A stretch of DNA of 64,000 bases from Candidatus Tayloriibacteriota bacterium (GTDB taxonomy: Bacteria > Patescibacteriota > Minisyncoccia > Phycocordibacterales > PALSA-1337). The notes beneath the pieces are model-generated. The model was not told the DNA's origin. It searched no databases and saw nothing but the letters and a program-made list of their open reading frames with translations. The stretch covers positions 87,622 to 151,621 of the forward strand of contig JACRJP010000002.1 in assembly GCA_016215455.1 (NCBI GenBank). The letters are read 5' to 3'. Positions 17,103-43,830 of this stretch are shown piece by piece; the stretch's first letter is position 1, and each line of letters begins with the position of its first letter. The position numbers were made by a program, and so were the translations under genes.

Positions 17103-17126
17103 ATATAAAATCTATCCTTTCTTGAA

Positions 17127-17200: not shown

Positions 17201-17290
17201 ATTTCCTAGTATTTTGCTTTGAAACACCAACAAAAACAACGAAAACAGTATATAACCTAATTTAATTTTACACAATTCACCTCAACAAAC

Positions 17291-17365: not shown

Positions 17366-17434
17366 ATTAAAAAATGCGTGTTTGTATCATACTCTAAGTT
17401 ATGAAAAAGTCCAAAGGTATACTAGAATAGTGCT

Positions 17435-26954: not shown

Positions 26955-27221
26955 ACTTTCTCACACCAATTTAGAGTCGTTTTTAATCGGGATATTTCAG
27001 TAATATATGGCTCTATGAAGCCGTATATTTTGTACTCTGCCGTAGAGGTACTTTCCAAGGATACGTGGGTGTGCATCAAAAGTCAACGGGGGGTGTGGAG
27101 AGATTTTATGGTGTAATATTATGAACATTCTGTCAAATATTGACTTGCTAGAGTAGTAAAAAGTATTTTGAAATATCGTTCTATAAAAAATGTCACGATC
27201 ACATCTGATATACTCAGTGTC

Positions 27222-29174
27222 ATGTCAACAAATTCTCTCAATGAACGTCAAAAAAAAGCGACCGAGACGCTCGATGGACCTCTTCTCATTCTTGCTGGAG
27301 CAGGAGCAGGTAAAACAAAAACCCTCACTCATCGAATTATCAATCTTGTACATCGAGGAGTAGCACCTCATGAGATTTTAGCTATCACCTTCACCAACAA
27401 AGCAGCTAAAGAGATGCGTGACCGAGTTAACCATCTTCTCTCAACCGATACAAGCTTAAATGTACCGATTTCTTTCAATGAACGTCCATTTGTAAGCACT
27501 TTTCACTCTCTAGGAGTACACATCATCAAAGAAAATAGCCGTATCCTCGACATTCCACGACATTTTACAATCTATGATCGTAATGATTCAAAACGAGCAG
27601 TAAAAAATGCTCTCGAGGAACTCAATCTTGATCCGAAACAATACGATCCTAACAAAATTCTCTCTATCATCTCACGTGAAAAGGGAGATGGTGTGTCATC
27701 TGTAGAATATGCAGCCCGTAATCTCGATTTTTTCCCAGAAATCGTAAGTAAGGTGTGGCAAAAATACGAACAACAACTTAAGAAAGACAAATCTCTTGAT
27801 TTTGATGATCTTCTTCTCAAAACAATGCTGCTCTTAAGAAATAATGCTGCTGTACGAGAACATTACGCCCAAACTTGGAAATATGTTCACATTGATGAGT
27901 ACCAAGACACTAATCGAGTACAGTACGAGATATCTCGTCTTCTTGTAGAGAAACATCGCAATATCTGTGTTGTTGGAGATATTGATCAAAATATTTATAG
28001 CTGGCGAGGAGCTGATATTCAAAACATTCTTAATTTCGAAAAGGACTATCCTGAAGCAACCGTTATTCTTCTCGAGGAAAACTACCGCTCAACACAAACG
28101 ATTTTGACGGCAGCTAATAGTGTTATTGAAAAAAATGTCATGCGACGAGACAAAAAACTCTTCACCAACAATGGTGAAGGGGACAAGATCGAACTCATCG
28201 AGACATATGATGAGAATGAAGAGGCTCGAACCGTTGCCGAGAAAGCAAAACTTCTCATAGCAAACGGTGTCTTGCCTGAAGAAATCGCAGTATTGTACCG
28301 AGCAAACTTTCAATCACGTATTCTTGAAGAAGCGTTTTTGAGAAAAAATGTACCATACCAAATACTCGGAACTCGATTCTTCGACCGAAAAGAGATCAAA
28401 GATGTACTCTCATTTATTCGTCTTGCGCTTAATCCCGACAATTCAGGAGACTTAAGCCGAGTTATCAACGTTCCTCCACGTGGAATTGGGAAAGTGACCC
28501 TTCTTAAAATCTTAGAGGGCAAGAAAAATGAACTATCAGGGTCTATGCAAGAGAAAGTTGGACAGTTTTTCAGAATCCTTGAAAGAATTCGCGAAGTGGC
28601 AAGTACAGAAAAACCCTCAGAACTCATTAAATTTACCATTCGAGAGACAGGAATTGAGTCTTCACTCAAAATGGGCGACCCCGAAGATCAAGAACGTCTT
28701 GAAAACCTTCGTGAAATGGTGACACTGGCCACAAAATACGATGAAACGCCAGGAGAAGAGGGTATAGAGAAACTTTTAAGTGACGCCGCTCTTGCAACAG
28801 ACCAGGATGAACTCCAAAAACCTCAAAGTGCCGTGAAACTGATGACTGTCCATGCCTCAAAAGGTCTTGAATTTGACTATGTCTTCATAGCAGGACTTGA
28901 AGAAGATCTTTTTCCTCATGCACGGCTCAACGAAGAGCATGTATCAGCAAGTGGCCAAGAAGAAGAGAGACGTCTCTTCTATGTAGCACTCACTCGTGCT
29001 CGAAAAAAGGTTTTTCTGTCATTCGCTGCTATTCGTACGATATTTGGAGCCCAAAAGGTAAACATTCCATCACAATTCATTGCAGATATTGATGTGGCTC
29101 TCATTGAACGAAATTCTCCCGATCAAAATGGGGAACAGGCTCGTGGAATAAAGGCTATTTTCATTGATTTCTAA
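27222..29174 (+). CDS. pcrA: ATP-dependent DNA helicase UvrD/PcrA family
   Basis: Motif I AGAGAGKTKTLTHR, DEYQDTN, and the rest of the SF1 motif set. The ORF track starts at 27168; ATG 27222 (MSTNSLNERQ) fits the family N-terminus better. Confidence 0.85.
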   Translation: MSTNSLNERQKKATETLDGPLLILAGAGAGKTKTLTHRIINLVHRGVAPHEILAITFTNKAAKEMRDRVNHLLSTDTSLNVPISFNERPFVSTFHSLGVHIIKENSRILDIPRHFTIYDRNDSKRAVKNALEELNLDPKQYDPNKILSIISREKGDGVSSVEYAARNLDFFPEIVSKVWQKYEQQLKKDKSLDFDDLLLKTMLLLRNNAAVREHYAQTWKYVHIDEYQDTNRVQYEISRLLVEKHRNICVVGDIDQNIYSWRGADIQNILNFEKDYPEATVILLEENYRSTQTILTAANSVIEKNVMRRDKKLFTNNGEGDKIELIETYDENEEARTVAEKAKLLIANGVLPEEIAVLYRANFQSRILEEAFLRKNVPYQILGTRFFDRKEIKDVLSFIRLALNPDNSGDLSRVINVPPRGIGKVTLLKILEGKKNELSGSMQEKVGQFFRILERIREVASTEKPSELIKFTIRETGIESSLKMGDPEDQERLENLREMVTLATKYDETPGEEGIEKLLSDAALATDQDELQKPQSAVKLMTVHASKGLEFDYVFIAGLEEDLFPHARLNEEHVSASGQEEERRLFYVALTRARKKVFLSFAAIRTIFGAQKVNIPSQFIADIDVALIERNSPDQNGEQARGIKAIFIDF

Positions 29175-29215
29175 GGATTTTTAGCCTTTTGGGCAATTCC
29201 TGCTAGAATACCCTT

Positions 29216-30034
29216 ATGAAACCAATATTTGCCAAGAAATCACTCGGTCAAAACTTCCTCCATGCCCCAAATGTAGTGAGAAATATCGTTATTACAGGCC
29301 ATATATCGCCAAAAGAGAGTGTTTTAGAGATAGGTCCAGGAAAAGGAGTCCTTACAGAAGCCCTTCTTGAAGCTGGTGCAACGGTTACCGCAGTAGAGAA
29401 AGATGACAACCTTATCCCTTTTTTAAATGAAAAGTTCAAAGAATTCGTAAAAACGGCTCAACTGAAGCTTTTTCATGCAGATATCCTTGAAATTTCACCT
29501 ACAACCATTGGAATTGAGCATCCCTATAAGCTTATCGCCAATATTCCGTACTACATAACAGGAGAAATCATAAGAAAATTCCTTGAAACTTCTACCCCAC
29601 CAGAATGTATGGTGCTCATGGTCCAAAAAGAAGTAGCTGAACGAATTGTGTCACGAGATGGCAAAGAAAGTATCCTCTCTATCAGTGTTAAAGCGTACGG
29701 AAAACCAAAATACGTTGAAACGGTGAAAGCGCGCTGTTTTAGACCAATTCCTAATGTAGATTCAGCTATTTTATTGATCGACAGCATATCAAAGGAGTTT
29801 TTCAATCAGCACAAAGTGTCAGAAGAACACTTTTTCAATGTAGTTCGTGCTGGTTTTGCTCACAAAAGAAAGTTTTTAATTAATAATTTGGAAATACTTG
29901 CTCCGAAACCAATTTTGATATCAATTTTTAATGAAATAGCTATTTCTCCAACGGTTCGAGCTGAATCAATCAACACAGAAACTTGGGGAAGAATTGCACA
30001 AAAAATTTCTTCTTCTTTTCCACAGAAAAACTAG
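29216..30034 (+). CDS. rsmA: 16S rRNA (adenine1518/1519-N6)-dimethyltransferase RsmA/KsgA
   Basis: KSLGQNFL start motif and SAM-binding VLEIGPGKGVLT. Confidence 0.85.
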   Translation: MKPIFAKKSLGQNFLHAPNVVRNIVITGHISPKESVLEIGPGKGVLTEALLEAGATVTAVEKDDNLIPFLNEKFKEFVKTAQLKLFHADILEISPTTIGIEHPYKLIANIPYYITGEIIRKFLETSTPPECMVLMVQKEVAERIVSRDGKESILSISVKAYGKPKYVETVKARCFRPIPNVDSAILLIDSISKEFFNQHKVSEEHFFNVVRAGFAHKRKFLINNLEILAPKPILISIFNEIAISPTVRAESINTETWGRIAQKISSSFPQKN

Positions 30035-30097
30035 GAAAATCAATCATCTTTTCTGAAATCTTTGCTATAATTATGGGTAGTTTGGAATCCAACTACC

Positions 30098-31000
30098 TTG
30101 AACTACCCTCGCTCAACAATCAGCCTGAAAAATATTCTATTAATCCTAGGTGCTGTAGTCATCATCGGAGGGTCTCTTATTGTCTCAAAACGAAATACTG
30201 AAAAAAATAAAGCTGCACAACTTACGTATCAAGCACCACTTGTAGCAACTACAAGTCTCATCACCATTGAAGGGGATACTACAAAAGATTGGGAAAAAGA
30301 ACTGATTTCAACCCACACCTATGATCCAAAAAATCCCACAGTAAGTTTTTCAACAAGTACTAATGCCAAGGACAAGAAACTCACTTCAACTGAGATACTC
30401 GCTCGAACTTTGTTTGCAAAATACATGTCACTCAACCAGCTCGGTCTCGGAAAAGATCCTCAGAGTCAGCAGGATAGTATCAACGAAGTTCTTGCAGCAA
30501 GTCTCAAAGATTTTAATCCTCCTGTGTACAGTGATAAACAAATCAAAGTAAGCAGTGACACAAGTACTGATGCTCTAAAAAAATATGGTAACGCAGTTGG
30601 TGAAACTTTTCTTACAAACACTGTCAGTGCACGAAACGAGACTGTAATCTTGAAAGAGGCAGTTGAAAATAACGATCCAAAAGTTTTAGCTGAACTTGAT
30701 CCAACTCTCGCAAGTTATCGAAAGATGCTCGTTGGACTTTTTGCGATACCTGCTCCAAAAAATATGGCAGCAAATCATCTCGCCATGATCAACAACGTAG
30801 CTGGTCTTATTTATCTTATTGAAAATTTTAAAAAAGCTTTTACCGATCCTGTTATGAGTCTACAGGCTGTAGGATACTATCAACAAATAGCTGAAGGTCT
30901 TGGGATATCATTTACTAATATAAGAAATACTCTTATGCAAGGAAATGTTACCTACACAATCACAGAAGGGGGTTCATTCTTTATTGCACCACAAAAATGA
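30098..31000 (+). CDS. N-terminally membrane-anchored extracytoplasmic protein, first gene of the T4SS-like operon (hypothetical)
   Basis: TM ILLILGAVVIIGGSLIV followed by a 270 aa soluble domain. TATAAT at 30065-30070 just upstream. Confidence 0.5.
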   Translation: MNYPRSTISLKNILLILGAVVIIGGSLIVSKRNTEKNKAAQLTYQAPLVATTSLITIEGDTTKDWEKELISTHTYDPKNPTVSFSTSTNAKDKKLTSTEILARTLFAKYMSLNQLGLGKDPQSQQDSINEVLAASLKDFNPPVYSDKQIKVSSDTSTDALKKYGNAVGETFLTNTVSARNETVILKEAVENNDPKVLAELDPTLASYRKMLVGLFAIPAPKNMAANHLAMINNVAGLIYLIENFKKAFTDPVMSLQAVGYYQQIAEGLGISFTNIRNTLMQGNVTYTITEGGSFFIAPQK

Positions 31001-32685
31001 AACTAGCTATTTTCAAAAAAATAACTCCTCTTTTCCTTATACTTGCTCTTACTCTTTCAAGTATCTCTCCACTCTTTGTTCCAAAAGAAGCTAAAGCTTT
31101 ATTCGGCTTCGGAGATATCGTTAATGACCCTTGGAACACAATCCAAAATACAATTTCTGCATCAGGAAGTGCCATTCGTACAGGTCTTCAAACAAGTCTC
31201 AACTTAAAGGAATTCACTCTCGATGCAATCGCATATGCCCTTGCAAAACAAATACTCCGTCAGGTTGTAAGTGACACCGTCAATTGGATCAACTCAGGCT
31301 TCGATGGAAACCCTGCTTTCCTTAGTGATCCAGCAGGATTCTTTTTGGGAATAGGGGATGAGATTCTTGGAAAATTCCTTGAGAGTATGGAGCTCACCAA
31401 CTTCCTTTGTTCACCATTTAGTATCGATGTTCGTATTGCTATCGCTTTCCGTTATCGTCCATTCTCAAAACGAGTACCGTCATGTACCCTAAGTCAGGTA
31501 ATTAAAAATAGTGAAAATGCCATTGAAGGAGCAAACATTAACGGTTTCACTGCTGGTGATTTCAAACAAGGAGGCTGGCCTGCATTCGTATCACTCACAA
31601 CAGAACCTCAAAACAATCAGTATGGTGCATTTATCGAAGCAGATAACGAACTTTCGATTCGAATTGGCAACAAAACACTTCTCAAACAAAACGACCTACT
31701 TCAAGGTAAAGGATTCCTATCTTGGGAAAAATGTACCGATATTCCTGTAAGTGCATCATCAAATACCGTAGGGCCTGTAGCGGCAGAGGCGCCAACTTTT
31801 TCTGAACAAGCTGGAATTTTCAATGCAGATGCATACAGCGGCACGGCACCAGCTGTACCGGCAAACTATGTTGAAAAAAATCCAGCAATGGTACCCCAGC
31901 AACACTGCGAAACACAAACTCCTGGATCAGTTATCTCTGGTCAACTCGAAACATCTCTTGGATCTCCAATTCGAGAGTTGGAACTTGCTGATGAAATTAA
32001 CGAAATTGTTAATGCTCTTTTTGCTCAACTCATCAAACAAGTTCTTACAAGTGGTCTTCGGGCTATCACCGGAAGTAGTCCAGGTGATCCTGACTCATAT
32101 ATCACTAAACTTGAAAATGAACGAGTTCAGAGCGACAGCCAACTTCAAACTATCAAGCTTAATATCCTAGAAAGTATTGATCGTTATATTAACCAAGGGG
32201 AAAAATACAAGACTGACAAAGAGACATCTCTGAAATACGGTTTGGATACAAAGAAACAACTCGATGATGTAAAAACTTGCTTCGAGACAAAACTCACTGC
32301 GGTATATACGCCACCACTCCGTGAAGATCAAAAGAATTTTGCAGCAAACAGTATTGCTCGAGCCGAATCAATCATCGTAACAAGTGTTGCTTCAACAACA
32401 ACACACCTTTACAGTGACGTTCTCTTTGCTGACGCACAAATAGCTCGTCTTGCTACAATTAAAGCGACAGTAACACGGGCTACTACAGTCAATGACATCA
32501 GCCCTCTAGCAAATGAGTATAACGGTCTTATAACTACCGGCGCGGTCATTGATGAAAGTGACACTACTCGAGCACAAACACAAATTACATTAGTACAAGA
32601 AGAAATGGATCCAATCCGCCAGACAGCAACTCGGCTTCAGCAGTCATGTAACCTGTTCCCATCAGTTATTACACCAATACCTTAA
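30997..32685 (+). CDS. Secreted 562 aa protein (hypothetical) in T4SS-like operon
   Basis: Signal peptide MKLAIFKKITPLFLILALTLSSISPLFVPKEAKA. Start overlaps the upstream stop (ATGA). Confidence 0.5.
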   Translation: MKLAIFKKITPLFLILALTLSSISPLFVPKEAKALFGFGDIVNDPWNTIQNTISASGSAIRTGLQTSLNLKEFTLDAIAYALAKQILRQVVSDTVNWINSGFDGNPAFLSDPAGFFLGIGDEILGKFLESMELTNFLCSPFSIDVRIAIAFRYRPFSKRVPSCTLSQVIKNSENAIEGANINGFTAGDFKQGGWPAFVSLTTEPQNNQYGAFIEADNELSIRIGNKTLLKQNDLLQGKGFLSWEKCTDIPVSASSNTVGPVAAEAPTFSEQAGIFNADAYSGTAPAVPANYVEKNPAMVPQQHCETQTPGSVISGQLETSLGSPIRELELADEINEIVNALFAQLIKQVLTSGLRAITGSSPGDPDSYITKLENERVQSDSQLQTIKLNILESIDRYINQGEKYKTDKETSLKYGLDTKKQLDDVKTCFETKLTAVYTPPLREDQKNFAANSIARAESIIVTSVASTTTHLYSDVLFADAQIARLATIKATVTRATTVNDISPLANEYNGLITTGAVIDESDTTRAQTQITLVQEEMDPIRQTATRLQQSCNLFPSVITPIP

Positions 32686-32687
32686 TT

Positions 32688-34949
32688 ATGAAGAAAGTAA
32701 TTCTTTACATTCTCATACTCGCAATCTTTATACCGACGACACTCGGGGTCTTTACGCCTAAGACAGCTCAAGCAAGTTGCGTCCCTTCACTTTCAGCAAC
32801 AATCACAGGTGGTTTTAAGATAACAGACTGTATCAATGAAGTTTCAACACTTGTCGTCTTTCCAATAGTAGGAAAGTTTCTTCAAGTAAGTGGTTTCTTA
32901 TTCGGTCTTTCAGTAAAAGCGAACCTAGGTATAGCAAATCTTGTTGATACAACAACAAATGGAGGAAGTGTTATTGGGGAAGTATGGAAAAACATCCGAG
33001 ATCTTTCAAGTATTTTCTTTATCGGAATGCTTTTATATGCATCATTCGCAATGATCCTTGGTGTAAGTGGTCCAAATGTAAATCAACTCATTGTATCAAT
33101 GGTACTTGCAGGACTTCTTATCAACTTTAGTCTATTCGGAACACGACTTATTATCGACGCATCAAACACCGTCTCATTATTGTTTTACAACGCCATAACT
33201 CCAGCGGGAAGTGCGGCAACATACGATGCGAGTTTTGCTGGTGGGTTAGGGGGCGGAATCGGAAGATTTATTGATTCTAAGATTGATGATGGTGGAATCT
33301 CAAACAATATCATGAGTGCTCTTGAGATGCAGACATTATTTGCTTCAGTCAAACAAAAACCAGGACAGTGGGTTCTCCAATCAATCGTTACAATGATCGG
33401 TGGCACCTTCCTCATGATTATTGCTGGTCTAGCATTCCTTGCTGGAGCACTCATGTTTGCTTACCGCCTTGTGATCCTCATTCTCCTCATGGCATTTTCT
33501 CCATTACCTGTCATTGCAATGATTCTTCCACAGACAGGGAAGTACGCAAAAGAATGGACTGATACTCTTATTAGTCAGTGTTTGTTTGCTCCTATCTATC
33601 TATTCCTTATGTATGTTGCGCTCAAGATTGCAACTGATCAAAGACTCATAGCTTTGTTTGGAGCACAACGCAAAACAGGCCTTGCTGATGTTATGAATCT
33701 CAATAATGCAGCAGGTCTCAGTGTTGGTCCTCTTCTTCAATATACAATTGTCATTATGTTGATGTACTACGCTCTCGTTGCTGCAAAATCATACGGTGGA
33801 CACGGTGCAGATATGGGAATTAAATGGATGAAAGGAGTTCAGTCATGGGGACAAGGGTTCGTGGGAAGAAACTTTGTTGCACGCCCAGCTCGAATGGTGG
33901 GAAATCTTTATGATAAAGCTCTCTCTGATCCAAAATCAGGACGCGTTACGAGTGTTCTAGCAAAAATCGGAAAGGTTACTGGGGTTGATCGTGGTATTCG
34001 CGAGACACTCTCTAGTATTGAAAAAGATAAATATGGCAACACAACTCTTGAAGGAGAAGAGAAGGCTGATAAGGCTCGTCTCAAAGATCTTAAAAACTTA
34101 CGAGAAGGTGGTAACCGTACTTCAAAAATCGAAAATGCTCTCAAGGTTCTTAAAAATGGTGGAACGGAAGCAGAACTTGGTAAGGCGCATAGCGATCTAA
34201 AGGATGCTATAAAAACAATGAGTTCTGCTGAATTAAAAGAATTGGACAAAGATACACTTAAAAACGAACACTTTGCAGCACGTCTTTCTTCGTCACAATT
34301 TGAATCTCTCATGAAAAACGACGACATCTCGGAATCTGATAAAAATAAAATCAAAGAGGCTCGTGCAACCGGTGTTACAAAACTCATTAATTCAAAAGGA
34401 ACTGTTACAAAAAAGAATAAGGATGGTAAAGAGGAAACAAACTCTGTTATGGGTCCAAACGAACTTCTCGCAGAAGGGAATATTGATCTTGCAAAACTTA
34501 GTACGGAGAACCTTGAAAAGCTTGCTCCATACCTTAGTCGTGGTAAGTATGAAAACCTCATGAAAGAAAATGATAACCCTGATCGCAACATCAGTGAAGC
34601 TGCAAAAGAAAAAATTACAGCGGCTCGGAAAAAATTCCTTGAAAGTAAAATGTTTGAAAGTGCTCCAGTTGCACCAGATAGTGCTGATGCTGAAGCTGTA
34701 GGACGACTTGTTAAATCAATGAAACCTGACGAGTTGTTCCCAATCATAGGAAATGATCTCGCAAAACTTACAAAACTTGCACCGTATCTACAAAATGATC
34801 ATCTACAGAAGATTGTTAGTGAATTTGATAAAGATACACAATTAGACATTGCCATGAAAATTATAGACCTTGATAAAAATGTTTATAAGAAAGTTCCTGG
34901 AATAGGTTTCGCTCGAAAAGTATGGAATCTATCATCAACACATCCATGA
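32688..34949 (+). CDS. VirB6/TrbL-like polytopic membrane protein with long K/E-rich C-terminal tail
   Basis: Signal/TM1, then at least 5 further TM helices across residues 100-330, then a 400 aa hydrophilic tail with internal repeats (DLAKLSTENLEKLAPYL / DLAKLTKLAPYL). Architecture typical of the T4SS channel subunit VirB6. Confidence 0.5.
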   Translation: MKKVILYILILAIFIPTTLGVFTPKTAQASCVPSLSATITGGFKITDCINEVSTLVVFPIVGKFLQVSGFLFGLSVKANLGIANLVDTTTNGGSVIGEVWKNIRDLSSIFFIGMLLYASFAMILGVSGPNVNQLIVSMVLAGLLINFSLFGTRLIIDASNTVSLLFYNAITPAGSAATYDASFAGGLGGGIGRFIDSKIDDGGISNNIMSALEMQTLFASVKQKPGQWVLQSIVTMIGGTFLMIIAGLAFLAGALMFAYRLVILILLMAFSPLPVIAMILPQTGKYAKEWTDTLISQCLFAPIYLFLMYVALKIATDQRLIALFGAQRKTGLADVMNLNNAAGLSVGPLLQYTIVIMLMYYALVAAKSYGGHGADMGIKWMKGVQSWGQGFVGRNFVARPARMVGNLYDKALSDPKSGRVTSVLAKIGKVTGVDRGIRETLSSIEKDKYGNTTLEGEEKADKARLKDLKNLREGGNRTSKIENALKVLKNGGTEAELGKAHSDLKDAIKTMSSAELKELDKDTLKNEHFAARLSSSQFESLMKNDDISESDKNKIKEARATGVTKLINSKGTVTKKNKDGKEETNSVMGPNELLAEGNIDLAKLSTENLEKLAPYLSRGKYENLMKENDNPDRNISEAAKEKITAARKKFLESKMFESAPVAPDSADAEAVGRLVKSMKPDELFPIIGNDLAKLTKLAPYLQNDHLQKIVSEFDKDTQLDIAMKIIDLDKNVYKKVPGIGFARKVWNLSSTHP

Positions 34950-35560
34950 TAAACACAAATATACCTTCAGAAATACTTGATGTTGCAAATTCTGCCGCCT
35001 TATTTGATAAGGTAGAACTTGTCACAAAACCATTTGAACTTCACATCAACCAAGTAGGTGAATTAGACTCTATCGTGCGACAAGCACTGAAAGGTGAAAT
35101 TCCTCGTGAAGAAATCTTGAAATATATTGTCGAGAACCTCGAGGTTGATGATGTTACTGGGAGTAAAATTCTTAAAACAATCAATCTCGAAATATTCCAA
35201 AAACTTCGTGAGCTCATTCTTGAGACTCACAATGAAAAGGAAGGTGGTAATGCTGAAGAAACATTAGCTCAAATCGAAAATACCGTGACGGAACCACTTG
35301 CGACAAAGTTACCTATAAATGTATTAGAAAAAAATACACCTCACGATCTCGCAAAAATTCCTGGCCAAACAGCGCACAATGTTCCTCATGTTGAACAAAC
35401 ACCACCAACACCTCCAATTGTCGAAAAACCTCGAAATCCCTTGCAGGGCCTAACTGCTCCTGTCCATAATCCAATGGAATCAGAGGTTCTTCAACCAAAA
35501 AAATCTCCTAACACACGTGGATACGACACAGTAGACCCATATCGTGAGCCGATTAATTAG
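34946..35560 (+). CDS. Soluble acidic protein with Pro-rich C-terminus (hypothetical) in T4SS-like operon
   Basis: ATG at 34946 overlaps the upstream stop by 4 nt. No TM segment. Confidence 0.45.
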   Translation: MINTNIPSEILDVANSAALFDKVELVTKPFELHINQVGELDSIVRQALKGEIPREEILKYIVENLEVDDVTGSKILKTINLEIFQKLRELILETHNEKEGGNAEETLAQIENTVTEPLATKLPINVLEKNTPHDLAKIPGQTAHNVPHVEQTPPTPPIVEKPRNPLQGLTAPVHNPMESEVLQPKKSPNTRGYDTVDPYREPIN

Positions 35561-35628
35561 GGCTGACGATAAGTAATCCCCTAAAGCTCTACAGAAGAGT
35601 AAAATGACAGTGTATACTATAGGTACGT

Positions 35629-36069
35629 ATGCGTTTCCAAGTCCCACAATTTATCGAAGTTGAGGATAAAGTCTTCGGACCACTCACCGTTAAGCAATTC
35701 ATCTATATTGCTGGTGGGGGAGGAGTTTCATTCATTATATGGTCACTTATCCCAGTTCCTCTCGTATTCAAACTAGTTATCATCCTCCCAATTATTGCAT
35801 TCTCATGCGCTTTGGCATTCTATAAGGTAAATAACAAACCCTTTATTAACGTTGTTGAAGCTGCATTCAAATATTTCTTTGCATCAAAGCTCTATATTTG
35901 GAAAAAAGCACCCAAAAAACCAGAAGTAGTAATGGCAGAGAGTCCACAGAAGCTTGTTGATGAATATAAGAGTATACTTGTACCAAAGATATCCGAAAGT
36001 AAACTCAAAGATCTCACATGGAGTCTCGATATTAAGGAAAGTATGTATTCCAACAAAAATCAACGCTAA
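35629..36069 (+). CDS. Small two-TM membrane protein, VirB3/PrgI-like position (hypothetical)
   Basis: 146 aa; hydrophobic hairpin FIYIAGGGGVSFIIWSLIPVPLVFKLVIILPIIAFSCALAF. Lies directly upstream of the VirB4-like ATPase, as VirB3 homologues do. Confidence 0.4.
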   Translation: MRFQVPQFIEVEDKVFGPLTVKQFIYIAGGGGVSFIIWSLIPVPLVFKLVIILPIIAFSCALAFYKVNNKPFINVVEAAFKYFFASKLYIWKKAPKKPEVVMAESPQKLVDEYKSILVPKISESKLKDLTWSLDIKESMYSNKNQR

Positions 36070-36707
36070 TGGCAAAAATATCAGGAACAACTCAAGAATT
36101 TGTACCGATCCGAGAAATACGAGATGGTGTTGTTATCTTGAAAGATGGCTCAATGAGAGCAATCGTTATGGCTTCATCTCTCAACTTTGCTCTCAAATCA
36201 ACAGATGAACAAAACTCTATCATCTATCAGTTTCAGAATTTCATCAACTCTCTTGATTTCTCTGTACAAATCTTTGTGCAATCAAAAAAGCTTGATATAC
36301 GGCCGTATATTAGTCTTCTTGAAGGACGCTATAAGGAGCAGGGTACTGATCTTATGAAGATCCAAACTCGTGAATACATTGAATTCATCAAAACTTTCGT
36401 TGAAAACAGTAATATCATGACAAAAAGCTTCTTTATAGTAATCCCTTATAGTCCTCCTGTTATCAATGACTCTCACAACCCAATCAAAAGTCTCCTCGGA
36501 AACTCATCGAGTGACAAAACAAAGGTGAGTGGCAGTGGATCATTCGATGAAAGTCGAACACAACTTGAACAACGTGTAGGAGTTGTGGAACAAGGTTTAA
36601 CACGCTGTGGAATTCGCGTAGCAGAACTTGGAACAGAGGAAATTGTCGAGCTCTTCTATAAGATATTCAATCCAGGAGACATGGAGAAGCCAATTCAACA
36701 ATCATAA
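36069..36707 (+). CDS. 212 aa soluble protein immediately 5' of the VirB4-like ATPase (possible detached VirB4 N-terminal domain)
   Basis: Start overlaps the upstream stop by 1 nt. Ends in TAA one nt before the ATG of the ATPase gene. Confidence 0.45.
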   Translation: MAKISGTTQEFVPIREIRDGVVILKDGSMRAIVMASSLNFALKSTDEQNSIIYQFQNFINSLDFSVQIFVQSKKLDIRPYISLLEGRYKEQGTDLMKIQTREYIEFIKTFVENSNIMTKSFFIVIPYSPPVINDSHNPIKSLLGNSSSDKTKVSGSGSFDESRTQLEQRVGVVEQGLTRCGIRVAELGTEEIVELFYKIFNPGDMEKPIQQS

Positions 36708-36708
36708 T

Positions 36709-38520
36709 ATGGGAATTTTAAATAAAATTTTTGGCAAAAAACAGGAAGAGGCCGTTGTATCAGTACTTCCACAAGAAATATATGAAGCTGGGGTGCTCGA
36801 ACTTCAGGATGTTATTGCTCCTTCAGCCCTTAAAATAAGTCCAAAAGAACTCAATCTTGGAGAAAAAGTAGCTCGTACTTTCTTTGTGATTTCATACCCA
36901 CGCTACCTTACTGACAGCTGGTTTGCCCCTATCATCAACCTTGATAAGGTTTTTAACATCTCAATCTTCATTCATCCGGTTGAAACAGCTAAGATCCTTC
37001 GACATTTCCAAAAGAAAGTAGCCGAAGTACAAAGCCAAATCAATGAACGTGAATCAAAAGGTCTCGTTCGTGATCCAATGCTCGATACTGCATATCAGGA
37101 TCTTGAACAACTTCGAGACAATCTTCTACAAGCACAAGAAAAGATCTTTGATGTCGGTGTGTACATCACAATATATGGTGATAACGATGGAGAATTGGAT
37201 AAGATAGAATCTGAGGTTAAATCAATCCTCGAAGCAAAACTTGTATACATCAAACCCGCACTCTTCCAACAAGCAGAAGGGTATAAGAGCGTACTACCGA
37301 TCGCTGATGATGAACTCATGGTTCATTCAAAGCTCAACTCAGCCCCACTTTCGAGTCTCTTTCCATTTGTTTCATTTGACCTTACATCAGACAAAGGAAT
37401 TCTCTATGGTATTAATCGTCATAATGCCAGTTTGGTACTCTTTGATCGATTTCTTCTTGAAAACTACAACTCAGTGACATTTGCAAAGGCTGGTTCTGGT
37501 AAATCATATTGTACAAAACTCGAAATTCTTCGAACACTTATGTTCGATACAGAAGTTATCGTGATCGACCCTGAACGCGAATATGAATACATGGCCGAAG
37601 CAACAGGAGGAAAGTACTTCAACATCTCACTTACATCAGAACACCACATCAATCCATTTGATCTTCCTGTACCACGCGAAGACGAAGCTCCATCAGATGT
37701 TCTTCGTTCACATATTGTTAATCTTGTAGGACTCTTCCGTATCATGATGGGAGGTATCAGCCGTGAAGAAGATGCGATTATTGATCGAGCAATTACCGAA
37801 ACATACGCTCTTAAGGATATTACTCCTGAGGCAGACTTTGCAAAGGTGGAACCACCACTCATGTCAGACTTTGAATATGTTCTTGCTGGCATGGAAGGAG
37901 GAGAGTCGCTTGTACAACGCCTTACGAAGTATACGAAGGGTACATGGTCAGGTTTCATCAATCGTCCAACCAACGTTGATATTAATAAAAAGTTCGTGGT
38001 GTTCTCTCTTCGAGATATGGAAGACGAACTCAAGCCAGTAGCAATGTATATTGTTACACACTTCATCTGGAACGCTATTCGTAAAAATCTCAAAAAACGC
38101 CTTCTTGTAATCGACGAGGCATGGTGGATGATGAAATCTGAAGATACGGCTTCATTCCTACTTGGTTTGGCAAAACGAGGTCGTAAATACTATCTTGGAC
38201 TTGCAACGATTACCCAGGACGTTGATGACTTCCTTAAATCTCCATATGGTCTACCTATCATCACCAACTCATCGATTCAGATACTTCTCAAGCAATCTCC
38301 ATCATCAATCGACAATATCCAGAGAACATTTAATCTCACTGATGAGGAAAAATATCTTCTTCTTGAATCAGATGTAGGAGAGGGGATATTCTTCGTGGGA
38401 CTAAAACATGTTGCAATCAAGGTTATTGCTTCATATACCGAAGATCAGATTATAACGACAAATCCTTCGCAAATTCTTGAAATTAAGCGTGCAAAGAAAG
38501 AACTCGAGGCTTCTCAATAA
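36709..38520 (+). CDS. VirB4/TrbE/TraC-family type IV secretion ATPase
   Basis: Walker A FAKAGSGKSY, Walker B LLVIDEAWWMM, and a conserved LATITQDVDDF block. 603 aa from ATG 36709; the ORF track gives 36628 in the same frame. Confidence 0.7.
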   Translation: MGILNKIFGKKQEEAVVSVLPQEIYEAGVLELQDVIAPSALKISPKELNLGEKVARTFFVISYPRYLTDSWFAPIINLDKVFNISIFIHPVETAKILRHFQKKVAEVQSQINERESKGLVRDPMLDTAYQDLEQLRDNLLQAQEKIFDVGVYITIYGDNDGELDKIESEVKSILEAKLVYIKPALFQQAEGYKSVLPIADDELMVHSKLNSAPLSSLFPFVSFDLTSDKGILYGINRHNASLVLFDRFLLENYNSVTFAKAGSGKSYCTKLEILRTLMFDTEVIVIDPEREYEYMAEATGGKYFNISLTSEHHINPFDLPVPREDEAPSDVLRSHIVNLVGLFRIMMGGISREEDAIIDRAITETYALKDITPEADFAKVEPPLMSDFEYVLAGMEGGESLVQRLTKYTKGTWSGFINRPTNVDINKKFVVFSLRDMEDELKPVAMYIVTHFIWNAIRKNLKKRLLVIDEAWWMMKSEDTASFLLGLAKRGRKYYLGLATITQDVDDFLKSPYGLPIITNSSIQILLKQSPSSIDNIQRTFNLTDEEKYLLLESDVGEGIFFVGLKHVAIKVIASYTEDQIITTNPSQILEIKRAKKELEASQ

Positions 38521-38526
38521 AACTCC

Positions 38527-39072
38527 ATGGCACAAAAAGGATCTATGTCAGCAGGAAAGTGGTTCATCCTCTATGTTATTAGTGGTTTTGTTGATCTTCT
38601 CCAAATAATTCTTGATTTTTTTGCTATTGGAATTGTAATCAATAGAGTTATTGATATCTTTTTAGGACTTGGATTACCTATATATCTTCATCTCAATGGA
38701 ATTCCAATGTTCGAGACAAAGAATTTAATGCTCTATATATCTGTATTTATTGGTGAAGAAATTCCTCTTGTTGATGCACTTCCATTATGGACTTTTGAAG
38801 TTTGGCGTATGCATAAGAACTATATAACATCACAATTAACAGAGGCTGTCCCCGCACTTACCCCAACAGCTCAAGCTATGAGTGGTATTAAAAATCCTCA
38901 ACAAACTCCACCTCTTAATAAAGATGGGGTACGCCAGCCACCACAAAGACAACGCGTACAGCAAATTAAGGTCAATACTTCTCAAAAACAACAAGAAGCA
39001 GATATTATATCCCCTGACTTCAATCAAACTTCTGAGAAATCCTCAGATGATGACCTTAAAGAGGCAGCATAG
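38527..39072 (+). CDS. Polytopic small membrane protein with Gln/Pro-rich tail (hypothetical)
   Basis: 3-4 predicted TM helices in the first 110 residues. Confidence 0.45.
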   Translation: MAQKGSMSAGKWFILYVISGFVDLLQIILDFFAIGIVINRVIDIFLGLGLPIYLHLNGIPMFETKNLMLYISVFIGEEIPLVDALPLWTFEVWRMHKNYITSQLTEAVPALTPTAQAMSGIKNPQQTPPLNKDGVRQPPQRQRVQQIKVNTSQKQQEADIISPDFNQTSEKSSDDDLKEAA

Positions 39073-39091
39073 TATGCTAAAATAATAGGGT

Positions 39092-40126
39092 ATGCATTCT
39101 CGTACTCTTAGAATTTTGACTGTCTTCTTCATAACCCTTGTTGTTGTAGGGACACTAGCTTCAACCCCACTCACTGTTTCAGCACAACAACCTTATGATT
39201 CTTTTGCCATTGAAACTACACCAACAAATCCAGCACCCGGACAAAGTGTAGTTGTTCAAGTAAAAAGTCTTTCTTCAGACATCGCACACGCTGATATTGC
39301 TTGGTATGAAGGATCGACCTTACTCAAAAGAGGGAATGGTCTCTCACAAATTACCGTCACAGCCCCAAAAAACGGAACTTCTATGAAGATTACCTCTATC
39401 ATTAGGGCGTCTGATGGAAAATCGTCAACACAGACAGTAACTATCCGCTCTGGTGAGGTTGATATGTCATGGGAAGCTCTAACATACACACCACCTCTAT
39501 ATCAGGGTCGTAGTATCTATACAAGTCAATCGAATATTAAAATTGTCGCACTTCCAAATCTTCGTGATAACAACGGTCGTTTAATTTCTCCTGATGATCT
39601 TGTGTACAAATGGAAAAAAGACTCAACAGTACTCGGAAGTCTTTCTGGATATGGAAAACAGAGCCTTACTCTAAAAGGAGACATTGTATCTCGGCCTTTT
39701 ACAATTACCGTAGATGTTGCTTCTCGCGACAATAGTATTAAAGGTCAAGGTTTTATGAATGTCGATGCTGTTGATCCTGAGGTACTACTCTATGAAGAAG
39801 ATCCTTTGTACGGTGTACTCTACAATCGTGCTGTTGGTGAACAGTTTTCATTAAAAAACGAAACAAAACTTACTGCTGAACCATATTATTTTTCTACAAC
39901 AAACAAAAGTGACTCTGCTTTACGTTATACATGGAGTATTAATCGACTTGAACAAAACGATATTCGAGGAACAAATCTTATCCTACGACCAAAAGGGGAT
40001 GTGGAAGGAGTTTCTTTAATTTCTCTTAGAATTGATAACTTACGAGAAATTCTCCAAAGTAGTTCAGCTGAAATTGGGGCATACTTTAGTAAAAAACAAC
40101 AAGAGGAGCTTCCTTTATTTCAATAA
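39092..40126 (+). CDS. Secreted beta-rich protein (hypothetical, possible surface/adhesin component)
   Basis: Signal peptide MHSRTLRILTVFFITLVVVGTLASTPLTVSAQ. Repeated Ser/Thr-rich beta-like segments. Confidence 0.5.
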   Translation: MHSRTLRILTVFFITLVVVGTLASTPLTVSAQQPYDSFAIETTPTNPAPGQSVVVQVKSLSSDIAHADIAWYEGSTLLKRGNGLSQITVTAPKNGTSMKITSIIRASDGKSSTQTVTIRSGEVDMSWEALTYTPPLYQGRSIYTSQSNIKIVALPNLRDNNGRLISPDDLVYKWKKDSTVLGSLSGYGKQSLTLKGDIVSRPFTITVDVASRDNSIKGQGFMNVDAVDPEVLLYEEDPLYGVLYNRAVGEQFSLKNETKLTAEPYYFSTTNKSDSALRYTWSINRLEQNDIRGTNLILRPKGDVEGVSLISLRIDNLREILQSSSAEIGAYFSKKQQEELPLFQ

Positions 40127-40129
40127 AAT

Positions 40130-41263
40130 ATGAAAAAAATACTTTTTATAATCGCAACTCTACTCATACTCACAAATCCTAGTGAAGGAAAAGCTGCTAT
40201 TCAAAGTTATAAACTACTTGAACCTCTTCCTTGTATCGGAACAACACAAGAATGTGTTGGGGGAAGGGTAGAACAAGTAGATCTCAAATCATACGTAGGA
40301 TACATTTTCAAACTTGTAATTGCCTTAGCTGGTGCTATTGCTGTATTTCGCATTACATGGGGAGGCTTTAAATACATGACGACCGACGCTATATTCGGTA
40401 AACAAGAAGGAAAGAAGGAGGTCAAAGACGCAATATATGGCTTAATCATGATACTTGCCTCATATCTTATACTTCGAACAATTGATCCACGGTTGGTAAA
40501 TATTAATACTGAAATTAAACCAATTGAACAAGCTGAGTACATAGACATGAACTCACTTTTTACTGACGTTGAAGAAGCAAGCAAGACTCTCTCAGAGGCA
40601 AATAAAACAGCCGGTGAATTAAGAGCTCAGATTGCAGCACTCAGAGCCCAGGCGGGAACGACAACGGATGAAGATTTAAGCATTCGACTTCGAACGGAAG
40701 CTCTTAATCTTGAACGTAAGGCTGAGAATATAACAGCAAATGCTGTAGCTGATGTAAATTTCGATTTGGCGAGAAAATCATTACAACAAAATACTGAGGT
40801 TTCTCTAAGCACGTCATTTAAAACCGATCTCGAATCAAGAATAAGAGTTATAGAAAAATCAGTACAAACAAACGTTCAACAACTGACTGATCTCGGAGAT
40901 ATTGATGGGGCAGCAAAACTTAAAGACAAAGGCAACTTCTATGTTATGTCAGTACGAGACGAATTAGATTTTACCGAGAAATTTAAAAAGATTGAAGAGA
41001 TAAATAATACCCGAACCACATGGACGACTGGTTTATGGGGTGGGCCGTATCTATACCTACTTGGAAAAGGTGTTGATAAAATTAAAAGTAAAAATGAATC
41101 TATTGTAGTTGCAGGAGATACTTTGATTAGTGAACTTCGAGCAAAAGAATCAAAAGCTCAACAATCAACAGATCCAGCACTGCAACAAGGCTACCTTGAT
41201 AATCTTCATGAACAAATTAAACAAACAGAAGATTTAATTAAACCACTTCGTCCAAATCCATGA
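40130..41263 (+). CDS. VirB2/TrbC-like pilin-topology domain fused to 250 aa coiled-coil region
   Basis: Signal peptide, then two hydrophobic helices (YIFKLVIALAGAIAVFRITWGGF and IYGLIMILASYLILRTI) separated by a short charged loop. Then a long Ala/Glu/Lys/Gln-rich helical region. Confidence 0.4.
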   Translation: MKKILFIIATLLILTNPSEGKAAIQSYKLLEPLPCIGTTQECVGGRVEQVDLKSYVGYIFKLVIALAGAIAVFRITWGGFKYMTTDAIFGKQEGKKEVKDAIYGLIMILASYLILRTIDPRLVNINTEIKPIEQAEYIDMNSLFTDVEEASKTLSEANKTAGELRAQIAALRAQAGTTTDEDLSIRLRTEALNLERKAENITANAVADVNFDLARKSLQQNTEVSLSTSFKTDLESRIRVIEKSVQTNVQQLTDLGDIDGAAKLKDKGNFYVMSVRDELDFTEKFKKIEEINNTRTTWTTGLWGGPYLYLLGKGVDKIKSKNESIVVAGDTLISELRAKESKAQQSTDPALQQGYLDNLHEQIKQTEDLIKPLRPNP

Positions 41264-42579
41264 AAAAAAGCACAGCATCATTACTTATATTCATAGTTCT
41301 CCTCATTCTTGGAGGGATTGGTTGGTATGTCTATACAACAAAGATTGCCCCACAGACAGGCACAACAGGTACTGATCCTTTTGGAGGATTTAACCCACTT
41401 GGAGGAACTGGCTCTACAGCGGTACCAGCAAATAATCAGGTGCCTACAACCCCTGATAGTCCTACAACAACCACACCGACACCAACCAAACTTCCTTTAC
41501 TACGACAACTTACTATAACACCAGTAGCTGGGGCTATGGCTTCGACAACAGCATCTTCAACAATTGTAAGATATGTTGATCGTGGGGTAGGGCATATATA
41601 TGAAATATCTCTAACTTCAAATGATTCTCAAAAAATCACCAACACAACAATTCCTCGTGTCTATACAACAACATGGAACCGACAAGGTACAGCTGTCATT
41701 CTTCGCTATATCAAAGAGGGAAGTACAATAATTAGTAACTTCTACGCAGACATCATCCCTCCAAAGAAGATTGTTGCGTCCTCTTCACCAAAAACAGCAA
41801 CAAGTACAGCAACCTCAACTATCGTTTCAACCCCAACACCCGTACAAGATGTTGTTGGTGAATTAAAAGGAAGATTTTTCCCAAGTAATATAATTGATAT
41901 AGCTGTTTCACCAAAAGGAGATCGTCTTTTTATCCTGTCCGAGGAAGGTGAGGGGAGTGTTGGATACCTCTCTCGTTTTACCGGAGATACTCGAACACAG
42001 ATATTTAATTCTCCACTTACACAATGGAATGTTGATTGGAATAATGAAGATAGTATTATACTAACCACAAAGGCAACCTACGCAGGTGTAGGTTTTGCAT
42101 ATCTTATTGATCTCAAGAAAGGTACTACAGAAAAGATCCTAGGGCCTTTGCGAGCACTCACAACAAAAGCAAGTACTGATACAACACAGTTATTCTATAC
42201 TTCGAGCGTTGATGGTAAACGCTTTATCTCAAAGATATTTACTCTAAAAGACCAAACTTCTCAGGATGTTGTATTCAGAACTCTCCCTGAAAAGTGTGTG
42301 TGGAGTAAGAAAAACTCTTCAATTATATTCTGTGCGGTACCAACAGACTTACGTGATACAAACCTACCTGATAGTTGGTATCAAGGAAAGGTTTCTTTTG
42401 TTGATACAGTATGGGAACTTGATACAGAAACAGGGGAGGTTCGCCAATTATCTAATCTTCTTGATCAATCAGGAAAGATAATTGATGTTACCAATCCATT
42501 CTTAGATCCAAAAGAAAACTTCCTCATCTTCACAAACAAACGAGACTTGACCCTCTGGTCACTTGATATTCAAGACTAA
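41260..42579 (+). CDS. Membrane-anchored protein with Thr/Pro-rich linker and beta-propeller-like C-terminal domain (hypothetical)
   Basis: N-terminal TM LLIFIVLLILGGIGWYVY, Thr/Pro linker, then repeated beta-strand-like segments. Last gene of the operon. Confidence 0.5.
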   Translation: MKKSTASLLIFIVLLILGGIGWYVYTTKIAPQTGTTGTDPFGGFNPLGGTGSTAVPANNQVPTTPDSPTTTTPTPTKLPLLRQLTITPVAGAMASTTASSTIVRYVDRGVGHIYEISLTSNDSQKITNTTIPRVYTTTWNRQGTAVILRYIKEGSTIISNFYADIIPPKKIVASSSPKTATSTATSTIVSTPTPVQDVVGELKGRFFPSNIIDIAVSPKGDRLFILSEEGEGSVGYLSRFTGDTRTQIFNSPLTQWNVDWNNEDSIILTTKATYAGVGFAYLIDLKKGTTEKILGPLRALTTKASTDTTQLFYTSSVDGKRFISKIFTLKDQTSQDVVFRTLPEKCVWSKKNSSIIFCAVPTDLRDTNLPDSWYQGKVSFVDTVWELDTETGEVRQLSNLLDQSGKIIDVTNPFLDPKENFLIFTNKRDLTLWSLDIQD

Positions 42580-42591
42580 CAACAGCTTTAT

Positions 42592-43347
42592 CTATTGGTT
42601 TTTTCGAGCAATTTGTCGACGCACCACAATCTCTTGGAAGATAGTAAATACATTTGAAACGATCCAGTATAGAGCAAAGATTGCTGCTGCCTTTGGTGCT
42701 TGGGTAGGAATGAGGAAATACGAAATAATAAACACCATAACAGGGAGAACGTACTTCATCTGCTTCATAGCATTTAACATAACTTCCTGACCAAAACCTT
42801 GGGTATTGTTTGCAGACTTTGCTGGAGTGGTCGCCTTAAGAGAGAAGTGGATCTGTACAAACTGTGAGACGGCAACAAAAAGAGATAGGACGAGACTTTT
42901 TTGAGTAATATCAATAAAACCAAAGAGAGTCATCTTAATAACAGGAACTGAAACAAAAGAGTAGAGATAACTTACATCAACAACAGGAAGACCCTTTTCA
43001 AACACTGAATACATCGCAATAAAGATAGGGAGTTGAATAATAAGTAGAAAGATACTTGAAAAAGGATTTACTTCTTTATCTTTATACATCTGCATTGTTG
43101 CTTTTGCCTGCTCTTCTTTGTTGTCTTTATATTTTTCACGAATCTTCGCAAGCTCAGGTTCAATTTCTTTCATTCGAGCCTGAGTAATAATAGACTTTCG
43201 AGAAAGAGGGAAGAGGATCAACCGAACAATACAAGTAAAAAGAATAACCGCAATTCCAGCATCTATTAATGGAACATAGTCCATGAGAAGGATGAGGATA
43301 TTGTAAAGTGGCTTAAAGACTATCGTTGAATATAAATATGAAAACAT
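42592..43347 (-). CDS. yidC: Membrane protein insertase YidC (short form)
   Basis: 251 aa, 5 TM segments, position after rnpA. Confidence 0.8.
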   Translation of the reverse strand: MFSYLYSTIVFKPLYNILILLMDYVPLIDAGIAVILFTCIVRLILFPLSRKSIITQARMKEIEPELAKIREKYKDNKEEQAKATMQMYKDKEVNPFSSIFLLIIQLPIFIAMYSVFEKGLPVVDVSYLYSFVSVPVIKMTLFGFIDITQKSLVLSLFVAVSQFVQIHFSLKATTPAKSANNTQGFGQEVMLNAMKQMKYVLPVMVFIISYFLIPTQAPKAAAIFALYWIVSNVFTIFQEIVVRRQIARKNQ

Positions 43348-43356
43348 TGTCTTTTA

Positions 43357-43692
43357 TTATATAAGAGAACCCTTTAAAAGGACATTCTTAATTTCGGTTG
43401 TTAATTGTTCTGGCGAGAGGTCTTTTATGTTTGTCTTAAGGACAAGCACCCCTTCATACCCTGGCCGTAGCTCAACCATAAGGTTTTTTAGGCTAGCGTA
43501 CACTCGGCGACGGAGTAAGTTCCTCATAACCGCTGTTGTAGCGACTTTCTTAGGGATTGTAACAGAAAACCGGCTCTGTACAGCGCCGGTTTTCTGAATT
43601 CTCATAAGAAAACGAGGGGAGTGTATTGGTGTTCCCGAAGTAACAACTCGAGCAAATTCTTCGCTTCGAAGTGTACGTGATCGTGGAAGCAT
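43357..43692 (-). CDS. rnpA: Ribonuclease P protein component
   Basis: 111 aa basic protein with RLRRRVYASL-type motif, between rpmH and yidC. Confidence 0.8.
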   Translation of the reverse strand: MLPRSRTLRSEEFARVVTSGTPIHSPRFLMRIQKTGAVQSRFSVTIPKKVATTAVMRNLLRRRVYASLKNLMVELRPGYEGVLVLKTNIKDLSPEQLTTEIKNVLLKGSLI

Positions 43693-43695
43693 GTA

Positions 43696-43830
43696 TTACA
43701 CTGTAATTCGTCGACGTCCTTTTGATCGACGTCGCTTCATAACATTCTTTCCTGCTGTCGACTTTCGACGCTTCAAGAAACCATGTGACCGAGCTCTCTT
43801 TCTTCCTTTAGGTTGATACGTTGTTGACAT
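43696..43830 (-). CDS. rpmH: 50S ribosomal protein L34
   Basis: Reverse-strand translation MSTTYQPKGRKRARSHGFLKRRKSTAGKNVMKRRRSKGRRRITV (44 aa). Below the ORF-track size cut-off. Confidence 0.85.
   Translation of the reverse strand: MSTTYQPKGRKRARSHGFLKRRKSTAGKNVMKRRRSKGRRRITV

Follow-up and report, generated by a model that had tools for sequence, protein, structure and literature searches.

Type IV secretion systems (T4SSs) belong to the small set of machines common to almost all Patescibacteria, ultrasmall host-dependent bacteria whose phylum accounts for a large share of bacterial diversity. Their VirB4 ATPases form a monophyletic clade, found in ~80% of genomes and nested in the monoderm mating pair formation class MPF-FATA (Quinonero-Coronel et al., 2025; PMC12102498). 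TrsD, PrgI/VirB3, VirB6 and VirB2-like pilins are encoded near virB4, a relaxase almost never is, and in Paceibacteria the system adjoins dnaA, dnaN, rnpA and ksgA (PMC12102498). In Southlakia epibionticum, transposon sequencing (Tn-seq) found the homologous cluster to be essential for epibiotic growth (Wang et al., 2023; PMC10633639). The function of the Patescibacteria T4SS has been called 'completely unknown' (PMC11665869); reviews speculate on effector delivery or on uptake from the host (PMC12857230), and, for a Microgenomatia parasite that acquires host RNA, a 2026 preprint describes tubular connections which, it suggests, 'may be T4SS pili'. Here we analyzed a 64-kb stretch (the window) of a Candidatus Tayloriibacteriota genome (contig JACRJP010000002.1, positions 87,622 to 151,621), which contains a cluster of eleven genes, g1 to g11, at 30098-42579 of the window. 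We consider it likely, with a probability of about 0.85, that this region is the core chromosomal T4SS of Paceibacteria, here of Candidatus Taylorbacteria, belonging to the Patescibacteria clade and of monoderm conjugation ancestry (MPF-FATA, with a CD1110-type VirB4). Earlier publications already cover the existence and ancestry of the system, its lack of a relaxase and its place near the origin, and these are rediscovered here. An earlier note, written from the DNA sequence alone, had proposed a Gram-positive-style T4SS, fixed in the chromosome of a host-dependent, small-genome bacterium and serving a purpose other than conjugation, and this proposal matches the published description (PMC12102498; PMC10633639).

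The motor is the part that is most readily identified. The product of g7 (36709..38520, + strand) corresponds to the C-terminal 603 aa of a VirB4 ATPase, in which both the Walker A (AKAGSGKSY) and Walker B (LLVIDEAW) motifs are read. It scored 365.6 bits against the NCBIfam model NF045971, 'VirB4-like conjugal transfer ATPase, CD1110 family', the cutoff of which is 325, and the match spans positions 173-733 of the 752 in that model; the protein also matched the TraC and VirB4_CagE models and Pfam P-loop_TraG (95.9 bits). The VirB4-family assignment made before any database search thus stands, and the protein is not FtsK or HerA. What the earlier note overlooked is that the preceding gene, g6 (36069..36707, +), encodes the detached N-terminal domain of VirB4. 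This TrsD-like protein matched the N-terminal portions of the NCBIfam models VirB4_plasma (Mbov_0397; positions 102-233 of 894, 1.2e-10) and CD1110 (2-118 of 752, 1.4e-6), as well as the TrsD family known from staphylococcal plasmids (14-143 of 201, 2.1e-6), and it covers the N-terminal part of the model that is missing from g7. The TrsD/VirB4 split was kept in all the loci compared, with a stop codon between the two genes, spacers from -4 to ~500 nt, and all three relative reading frames. A programmed frameshift or a sequencing error joining g6 to g7 was rejected on these grounds, and we conclude that VirB4 is genuinely encoded by two genes. The cluster therefore specifies ten functional units, of which VirB4 is the split one.

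Relatives of the cluster were sought using one genome per species. Relatives of the g7 ATPase were found in at least 583 species-representative genomes, and the best 80 of these all belonged to Patescibacteria/Paceibacteria metagenome-assembled genomes (MAGs; for example Taylorbacteria, Zambryskibacteria and Campbellbacteria), with 78-89% identity. The nearest plasmid-borne VirB4 proteins are of the CD1110 type from Firmicutes and Actinobacteria, with 28-35% identity, and no VirB4 relative was found on IMG/VR viral contigs. A comparison across related genomes, suggested earlier as a check, was made with 42 full-length loci from different species-level Paceibacteria genomes. The order uvrD-ksgA-g1-g2-VirB6-(g4)-PrgI-TrsD-VirB4-(g8)-g9-pilin-g11-yidC-rnpA-dnaA-dnaN was kept in essentially all of them, so that the arrangement is not due to chance. 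Median pairwise identities, calculated for 34 genomes, were 80.5% for VirB4, 62% for TrsD, 52% for PrgI and 22-30% for the extracytoplasmic subunits; those of the housekeeping proteins DnaA, DnaN and YidC were 60%, 49% and 44%. VirB4 (36709-38520) is thus more constrained than the replication initiator (44011-45363), and the exposed subunits of the same machine evolve very fast. This two-speed pattern is unusually sharp for a single operon.

The membrane platform was recognized with varying ease. The g5 product (35629..36069, +), noted before as a two-transmembrane (TM) protein at the position of VirB3, is a member of the PrgI (VirB3-like) family (Pfam PF12666, 43.4 bits for a gathering cutoff of 27), has two hydrophobic segments, and was present in all 42 loci. 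The g3 product (32688..34949, +) is an extended VirB6/TrbL-like polytopic membrane protein with ~7 hydrophobic segments and a C-terminal tail of ~350 aa. The polytopic topology, the charged tail and a weak resemblance to TrbL are in line with what had been claimed for this protein; the tail (residues 401-753) is rich in charged residues (K 14%, E 8.5%, D 7.6%), but the repeats ascribed to it were not found by self-BLAST. TrbL was matched by 6 of 28 orthologues of g3 at E<=0.01, and a profile search with the g3 family against PDB sequences returned nothing at E<=0.01. The pilin-like domain predicted within g10 (40130..41263, +) was recovered with Pfam PF18895 (T4SS_pilin): residues ~55-118 form a VirB2-like domain with two TM helices, and a C-terminal extension of ~260 aa, which is variable, comes after it. 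Only the first third of the protein is conserved (tblastn coverage of 0.32), and its orthologues range from 106 to 628 aa in length. The loop joining the two TM helices is K-rich, which suggests that it is cytoplasmic; because of these lysines, the C-terminal extension is predicted to be probably extracellular. A hidden Markov model (HMM) built from the orthologues of g10 detected no additional pilin gene in the window, and g10 is likewise the single pilin-like open reading frame (ORF) in 60 of 62 loci.

All eleven ORFs of the cluster were confirmed, with the coordinates assigned to them before, as co-directional, tightly packed genes on the + strand. The g1/g2, g3/g4 and g10/g11 junctions are ATGA overlaps, the g5/g6 junction is a TAATG overlap, and spacers of 2, 1, 6, 19 and 3 nt separate g2 from g3, g6 from g7, g7 from g8, g8 from g9 and g9 from g10, respectively. 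Overlaps or spacers of 1-19 nt are therefore found at nine of the ten internal junctions, close to the 0-20 bp described earlier for all of them; the exception is the g4-g5 junction, of 68 nt. Besides this gap ahead of g5 (35629), the only longer one is that of 63 nt between ksgA and g1. At the other end, the stop codon of g11 (42579) lies 12 nt from that of the convergent yidC gene. Hydropathy analysis showed three products without a hydrophobic segment (g4, g6 and g7), which are taken to be cytoplasmic, and not two, as the earlier note would have it. Two antisense ORFs (33908-34747 and 37464-38093) and one in an alternative frame (31823-32170) were judged spurious because they lie inside conserved + strand genes.

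The 63-nt spacer upstream of g1 contains an extended -10-like element, TGCTATAAT (30063..30071, +), in which a TG directly precedes TATAAT. The hexamer itself had been noticed before; it is located at 30066-30071, and not at 30065. No match to a -35 element was found upstream of it. A consensus scan showed no enrichment of promoter-like sites in the region (28, against 38 +/- 5.6 in shuffled sequences), and such scans for promoters and terminators, returning fewer matches than shuffled sequence, were uninformative. For this reason, the TATAAT element is no more than a plausible, putative operon promoter, as read from the spacer. The 68-nt spacer (35561-35628), which precedes the PrgI gene, holds TATACT/TATAGG-like hexamers. 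It could harbor an internal promoter for the half of the cluster that begins with PrgI, TrsD and VirB4.

The setting of the operon is chromosomal. Pfam scans of all the ORFs of at least 150 aa detected no relaxase, VirD4-type coupling protein, VirB11 or integrase of an integrative conjugative element (ICE) in the window, in line with what the earlier note reported for the neighborhood of the operon. The other ORFs of this size encode only housekeeping and type IV pilus functions, and the sole tyrosine recombinase of the window (20176-21132), 9 kb upstream of the operon, is of the Xer type. No tRNA genes are found at the borders of the cluster, the G+C content of which equals that of its flanks. 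The absence of a relaxase and of a nearby coupling protein makes conjugation an unlikely function. Also as described before, the cluster lies among housekeeping genes next to oriC: yidC, rnpA, dnaA and dnaN follow it, and the cumulative GC-skew minimum, together with small clusters of DnaA-box-like sites, places the origin beside dnaA. To the left of ~43 kb the GC skew is negative regardless of the direction of the genes, and beyond this point it is positive. Within 27168-43700, transcription of the whole 12.5-kb operon runs towards oriC, a direction shared by ~70% of the genes to the left of dnaA, and the operon is thus oriented head-on to replication. Almost all of the 42 loci preserve this orientation.

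Six products of the cluster are lineage-specific partners of the recognizable core, four of which are extracytoplasmic: the bitopic g1, g2 with its Cys-rich and helical-bundle regions, the three-domain beta protein g9, and g11, a membrane-tethered propeller. All six had been listed earlier as belonging to no family that could be named; this holds for g1, g4 and g8, whereas g11 is now seen to be a propeller and g9 to consist of three beta-rich domains. The fold search recommended for these proteins was successful for g11 but not for g2, the model of which had no Foldseek match in the PDB at E<=1e-3.

The g2 gene (30997..32685, +) codes for a Sec-secreted protein of 562 aa. It carries an N-terminal DUF4141/VirB5-like motif, IVNDPWNTIQNTISA (residues 41-55), a conserved domain rich in Cys and, towards the C-terminus, a helical bundle; the protein has invariant cysteines. 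Several orthologues of g2 matched Pfam DUF4141 above the gathering cutoff, right where the mature protein begins. In conjugative transposons of Bacteroides, DUF4141 proteins fill the position of TraI, and TraI of CTnDOT is reported to be homologous to VirB5 (Guglielmini et al., 2014; PMC4027160). Moreover, g2 lies directly upstream of the VirB6 gene, as does virB5. When the g2 family was aligned to VirB5 of A. tumefaciens with hhalign (P=0.0035), only the 'V-x-D-P' motif close to the signal peptide was aligned. No match of g2 to Pfam VirB5 was found, nor did its profile match any PDB sequence at E<=0.01. The AlphaFold2 (AF2) model of g2 has low confidence over half of its length, and the conserved N-terminal half has predicted local distance difference test (pLDDT) values below 50. 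We tentatively regard g2 as VirB5-like, and as a candidate pilus-tip protein or nucleator, with about even odds.

Of the remaining exported proteins, the g1 product (30098..31000, +) is, by hydropathy, a bitopic membrane protein with a TM segment at residues 12-30 and a fast-evolving ectodomain of ~270 aa. It matched no family among the Pfam or NCBIfam models. Its median pairwise identity is 22.5%, an ORF of ~300 aa with one TM segment occupies the g1 slot in most loci, and bacterial TSP3 repeats were detected in 10 of 29 orthologues. The g9 product (39092..40126, +), found in 42 of 42 loci, has a signal-like N-terminus, consistent with Sec-dependent secretion, and three tandem homologous beta-rich domains of ~105 aa each; pairwise hhalign comparisons of the three segments gave probabilities of 91-96% and E values of 1e-6 to 6e-9. 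A few orthologues have weak matches to immunoglobulin (Ig)-type Pfam families, and the domains are probably Ig-like. The g11 product (41260..42579, +) is a membrane-anchored beta-propeller, with a TM helix (residues 3-27), a disordered T/P-rich linker (31-73) and the propeller itself (80-439). Its AF2 model (pLDDT 85.4; predicted template modeling score, pTM, 0.76) had 1204 Foldseek matches in the PDB at E<=1e-3, the top ones being propellers of WD40, TolB and S9-peptidase proteins. This resemblance is generic, and a catalytic domain is absent. We found 762 homologues of g11, which is present in 42 of 42 loci and is identical to HZA80_00785 from a MAG of Candidatus Taylorbacteria. Profiles of g9 and g11 matched nothing among PDB sequences at E<=0.01.

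The two other partners are barely alignable among genomes, yet ORFs of the same size and topology are found at their positions in most loci. The g4 product (34946..35560, +; alternative open ATG start at 34922) is a soluble, poorly conserved protein of ~205 aa, with no TM segment by hydropathy and no Pfam or NCBIfam family. Among 57 loci, the slot between the VirB6 and PrgI genes contains one ORF of at least 60 aa in 48 cases and two or three in 6; almost all of these ORFs are TM-free, and most are of ~180-260 aa. The g8 product (38527..39072, +) is a small polytopic membrane protein with a Q/P-rich tail, as judged by hydropathy, also with no Pfam or NCBIfam family; an ORF of ~130-190 aa with 2-4 TM segments is found between the VirB4 and g9 genes in 48 of 67 loci.

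Composition and conservation are observed here; how the machine may work is drawn from established T4SS biology. VirB4, with TrsD, would dock on PrgI and VirB6 and energize the extraction of the pilin from the membrane. The extracted pilin would then be assembled into a channel that spans the cell wall or into a pilus-like filament, for which g2 may act as a VirB5-like nucleator and tip. The extension of g10, together with g1, g2, g9 and g11, would form the host-facing surface, and these fast-evolving exposed parts would contact the envelope of the host cell. Across this contact, the machine would move macromolecules, either effectors outwards or host material inwards, but not its own DNA by conjugation.

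Several observations weigh against this assignment. The match of g3 to TrbL (PF04610; E=1.1e-4, 22.4 bits) is under the gathering cutoff of 25.9, and that of g10 to PF18895 (26.9 bits) is barely at the cutoff of 26.6. No VirB8-like (NTF2-fold) bitopic subunit had a sequence match in the operon with Pfam or NCBIfam models, and no VirB1-like subunit was recognized there. The 63- and 68-nt spacers could each be a promoter site in what is presumed to be a single transcription unit. Only the 64-kb window was scanned, and a relaxase or a coupling protein could be encoded elsewhere in the genome; VirD4 homologues are distant from virB4 in many Patescibacteria (PMC12102498). The evidence for essentiality comes from S. 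epibionticum, a member of a different class, Saccharimonadia (PMC10633639).

It is highly improbable that the cluster is an ICE, or the remnant of one, lodged near the origin and serving to transfer DNA between cells. VirB4, PrgI and TrsD are homologous to components of Gram-positive conjugative plasmids and ICEs, but the window lacks a relaxase, a type IV coupling protein (T4CP) and an integrase, there is no tRNA at the borders, the composition is that of the flanks, and no relative was found on viral contigs. The cluster sits in one and the same insertion context in essentially all of the 42 species-level genomes, and a VirB4 more conserved than DnaA is the opposite of what is expected of a decaying or mobile element. 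A competence-type machine, like ComB of H. pylori or the archaeal Ced system, would instead import environmental or host DNA as a source of nucleotides. ComB functions without a relaxase or VirD4, Patescibacteria are unable to make nucleotides, and the T4SS has been named as a candidate route for their acquisition (PMC11665869); in the class ABY1, moreover, T4SS loci co-localize with comF, recG and radA (PMC12102498). The weak match of the motor to CedB, however, reaches 31.9 bits for a cutoff of 700 (NF041017) and reflects the shared P-loop only; there are no ComB-type VirB7, VirB9 or VirB10 proteins, and neither a DNA-binding protein nor a nuclease is encoded in the operon as a partner. In S. 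epibionticum, competence depends on type IV pili and ComEC, and comEC is dispensable while the T4SS is essential (PMC11665869; PMC12857230). We therefore regard DNA uptake as a distinctly unlikely function.

Much the same low credence is given to an organelle of attachment only, in which a VirB4-powered pilus or fiber would hold the epibiont on its host with no passage of substrates. The pilin, the possible tip protein, and the fast-evolving Ig-like and propeller ectodomains would suit such a role, there is no coupling protein in the window to recruit substrates, and in classical systems VirB4 alone is sufficient for pilus biogenesis (PMC4027160). However, the window already encodes type IV pili (pilB, pilC and a pseudopilin), which in Saccharibacteria provide adhesion and motility (PMC12857230), the extended VirB6-like subunit has been retained, and T4SSs that secrete without a T4CP are known (Ptl and Brucella VirB; PMC12102498). 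A bolder form of the transport model is that of a true conjugative-type pilus on a monoderm cell, in the version found in Paceibacteria. A VirB5-like g2 tip would nucleate the polymerization of a single VirB2-like pilin, the large variable ectodomain of which would decorate the filament, and the propeller and the Ig-like partners would guide it through the wall. Having pierced the envelope of the host, the filament would import host macromolecules, such as RNA or nucleotides. We think this unlikely, but if true, the import pilus would be the first growth-essential, inward-directed T4SS. It would also explain the conservation of the motor above that of DnaA.

Other features of the window were also recorded. 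A gene for a LysM and M23 peptidase protein (25851-26954, - strand) lies 3 kb upstream of the operon. VirB1-type matches, 83 of which have domains such as M23/LysM, have been tied to virB4 specifically in Paceibacteria (PMC12102498), and this peptidase may be the missing wall-remodeling partner of the T4SS. Type IV pilus genes, all on the - strand, are found in two regions. The first (729-6161) includes pilB (4371-6161), pilC (3148-4362) and the gene for a pseudopilin of 600 aa with N_methyl and CarboxypepD_reg domains (1343-3145); the second (53727-55400) corresponds to a second PilB/T2SSE-type ATPase. A segment of ~2 kb (15412-17434) contains four tRNA genes (Gly, Pro, Gly and Arg), 90-630 bp apart, with no ORF of at least 150 aa and no further matches in an Rfam scan at gathering cutoffs. 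The G+C content rises to ~0.50 at 60200-62600, over a background of ~0.39. This segment has two - strand genes, one amidohydrolase-like (60242-61321) and the other dihydroorotate-dehydrogenase-like (61414-62415), and ends at a tRNA-Lys gene (62509-62582). The segment resembles an islet gained by horizontal transfer, with genes of the pyrimidine-pathway type, in a lineage that is said to lack nucleotide synthesis.

The T4SS is essential in the single species tested and, of the routes by which these minimal cells could exploit their hosts, it is the leading candidate. The window provides a clean and complete example from Paceibacteria, a class with very few cultured members, and a sharper parts list: a highly constrained motor, very fast-evolving exposed subunits, a tethered propeller, a three-domain secreted protein and a possible VirB5-like protein. 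What remains new are the assignments of the accessory subunits and the marked two-speed evolution.

Compared with known systems, the cluster resembles H. pylori ComB and the archaeal Ced system in being a relaxase-independent machine with a VirB4-family ATPase and a non-conjugative function, but it lacks the VirB7-10 parts of ComB and falls far under the cutoff of the CedB model. With the Agrobacterium VirB system (MPF-T), it shares a two-TM pilin and a polytopic protein that weakly matches VirB6, but not VirB7, VirB9, VirB10 or VirB11. The minor pilins VirB5, TraC and TrbJ, encoded beside virB6, are secreted proteins of ~220 aa that contain a three-helix bundle and have a conserved N-terminus in the mature form; g2, with 562 aa, has an extra conserved Cys-rich domain, and its similarity to VirB5 is weak and was not significant in the Foldseek and PDB profile searches. 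The study that described the Patescibacteria clade (PMC12102498) reports no VirB5-like protein for it.

The monoderm MPF-FATA systems (C. difficile CTn2 of the CD1110 type, Prg/Pcf of pCF10, and Trs of pGO1/pSK41) have in common with this locus a CD1110-family VirB4, a PrgI-type VirB3 and the absence of an outer-membrane core complex, and pGO1 also has a separate TrsD-type VirB4 N-terminal domain. They differ in that the VirB4 proteins are only 28-35% identical, that the system described here is chromosomally fixed and not mobile, and that no relaxase, T4CP, VirB1-type hydrolase, VirB8-like protein or PrgB-type adhesin was recognized in it. Its VirB2-like pilin, in turn, is without counterpart in the Gram-positive systems. 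The cluster of S. epibionticum (SEML1_0006-0019; PMC10633639) has the same core order, VirB6 ... PrgI-TrsD-VirB4, but the T4SS of Saccharimonadia has an array of six pilin genes, whereas a single pilin gene with a long variable extension is found here. Neither an NTF2/VirB8-like protein nor an adjacent lysozyme or peptidase was recognized, in which the locus differs from the T4SS described for the Patescibacteria clade, and the beta-propeller, the three-domain beta protein and the DUF4141-motif protein are partners absent from the discussion in both studies (PMC12102498; PMC10633639). With the Patescibacteria-clade T4SS (PMC12102498), the locus shares VirB4, a separate TrsD, PrgI, a VirB6-like protein and a PF18895 VirB2-like pilin, together with the lack of a relaxase or nearby T4CP and a chromosomal site beside dnaA, dnaN, rnpA and ksgA.

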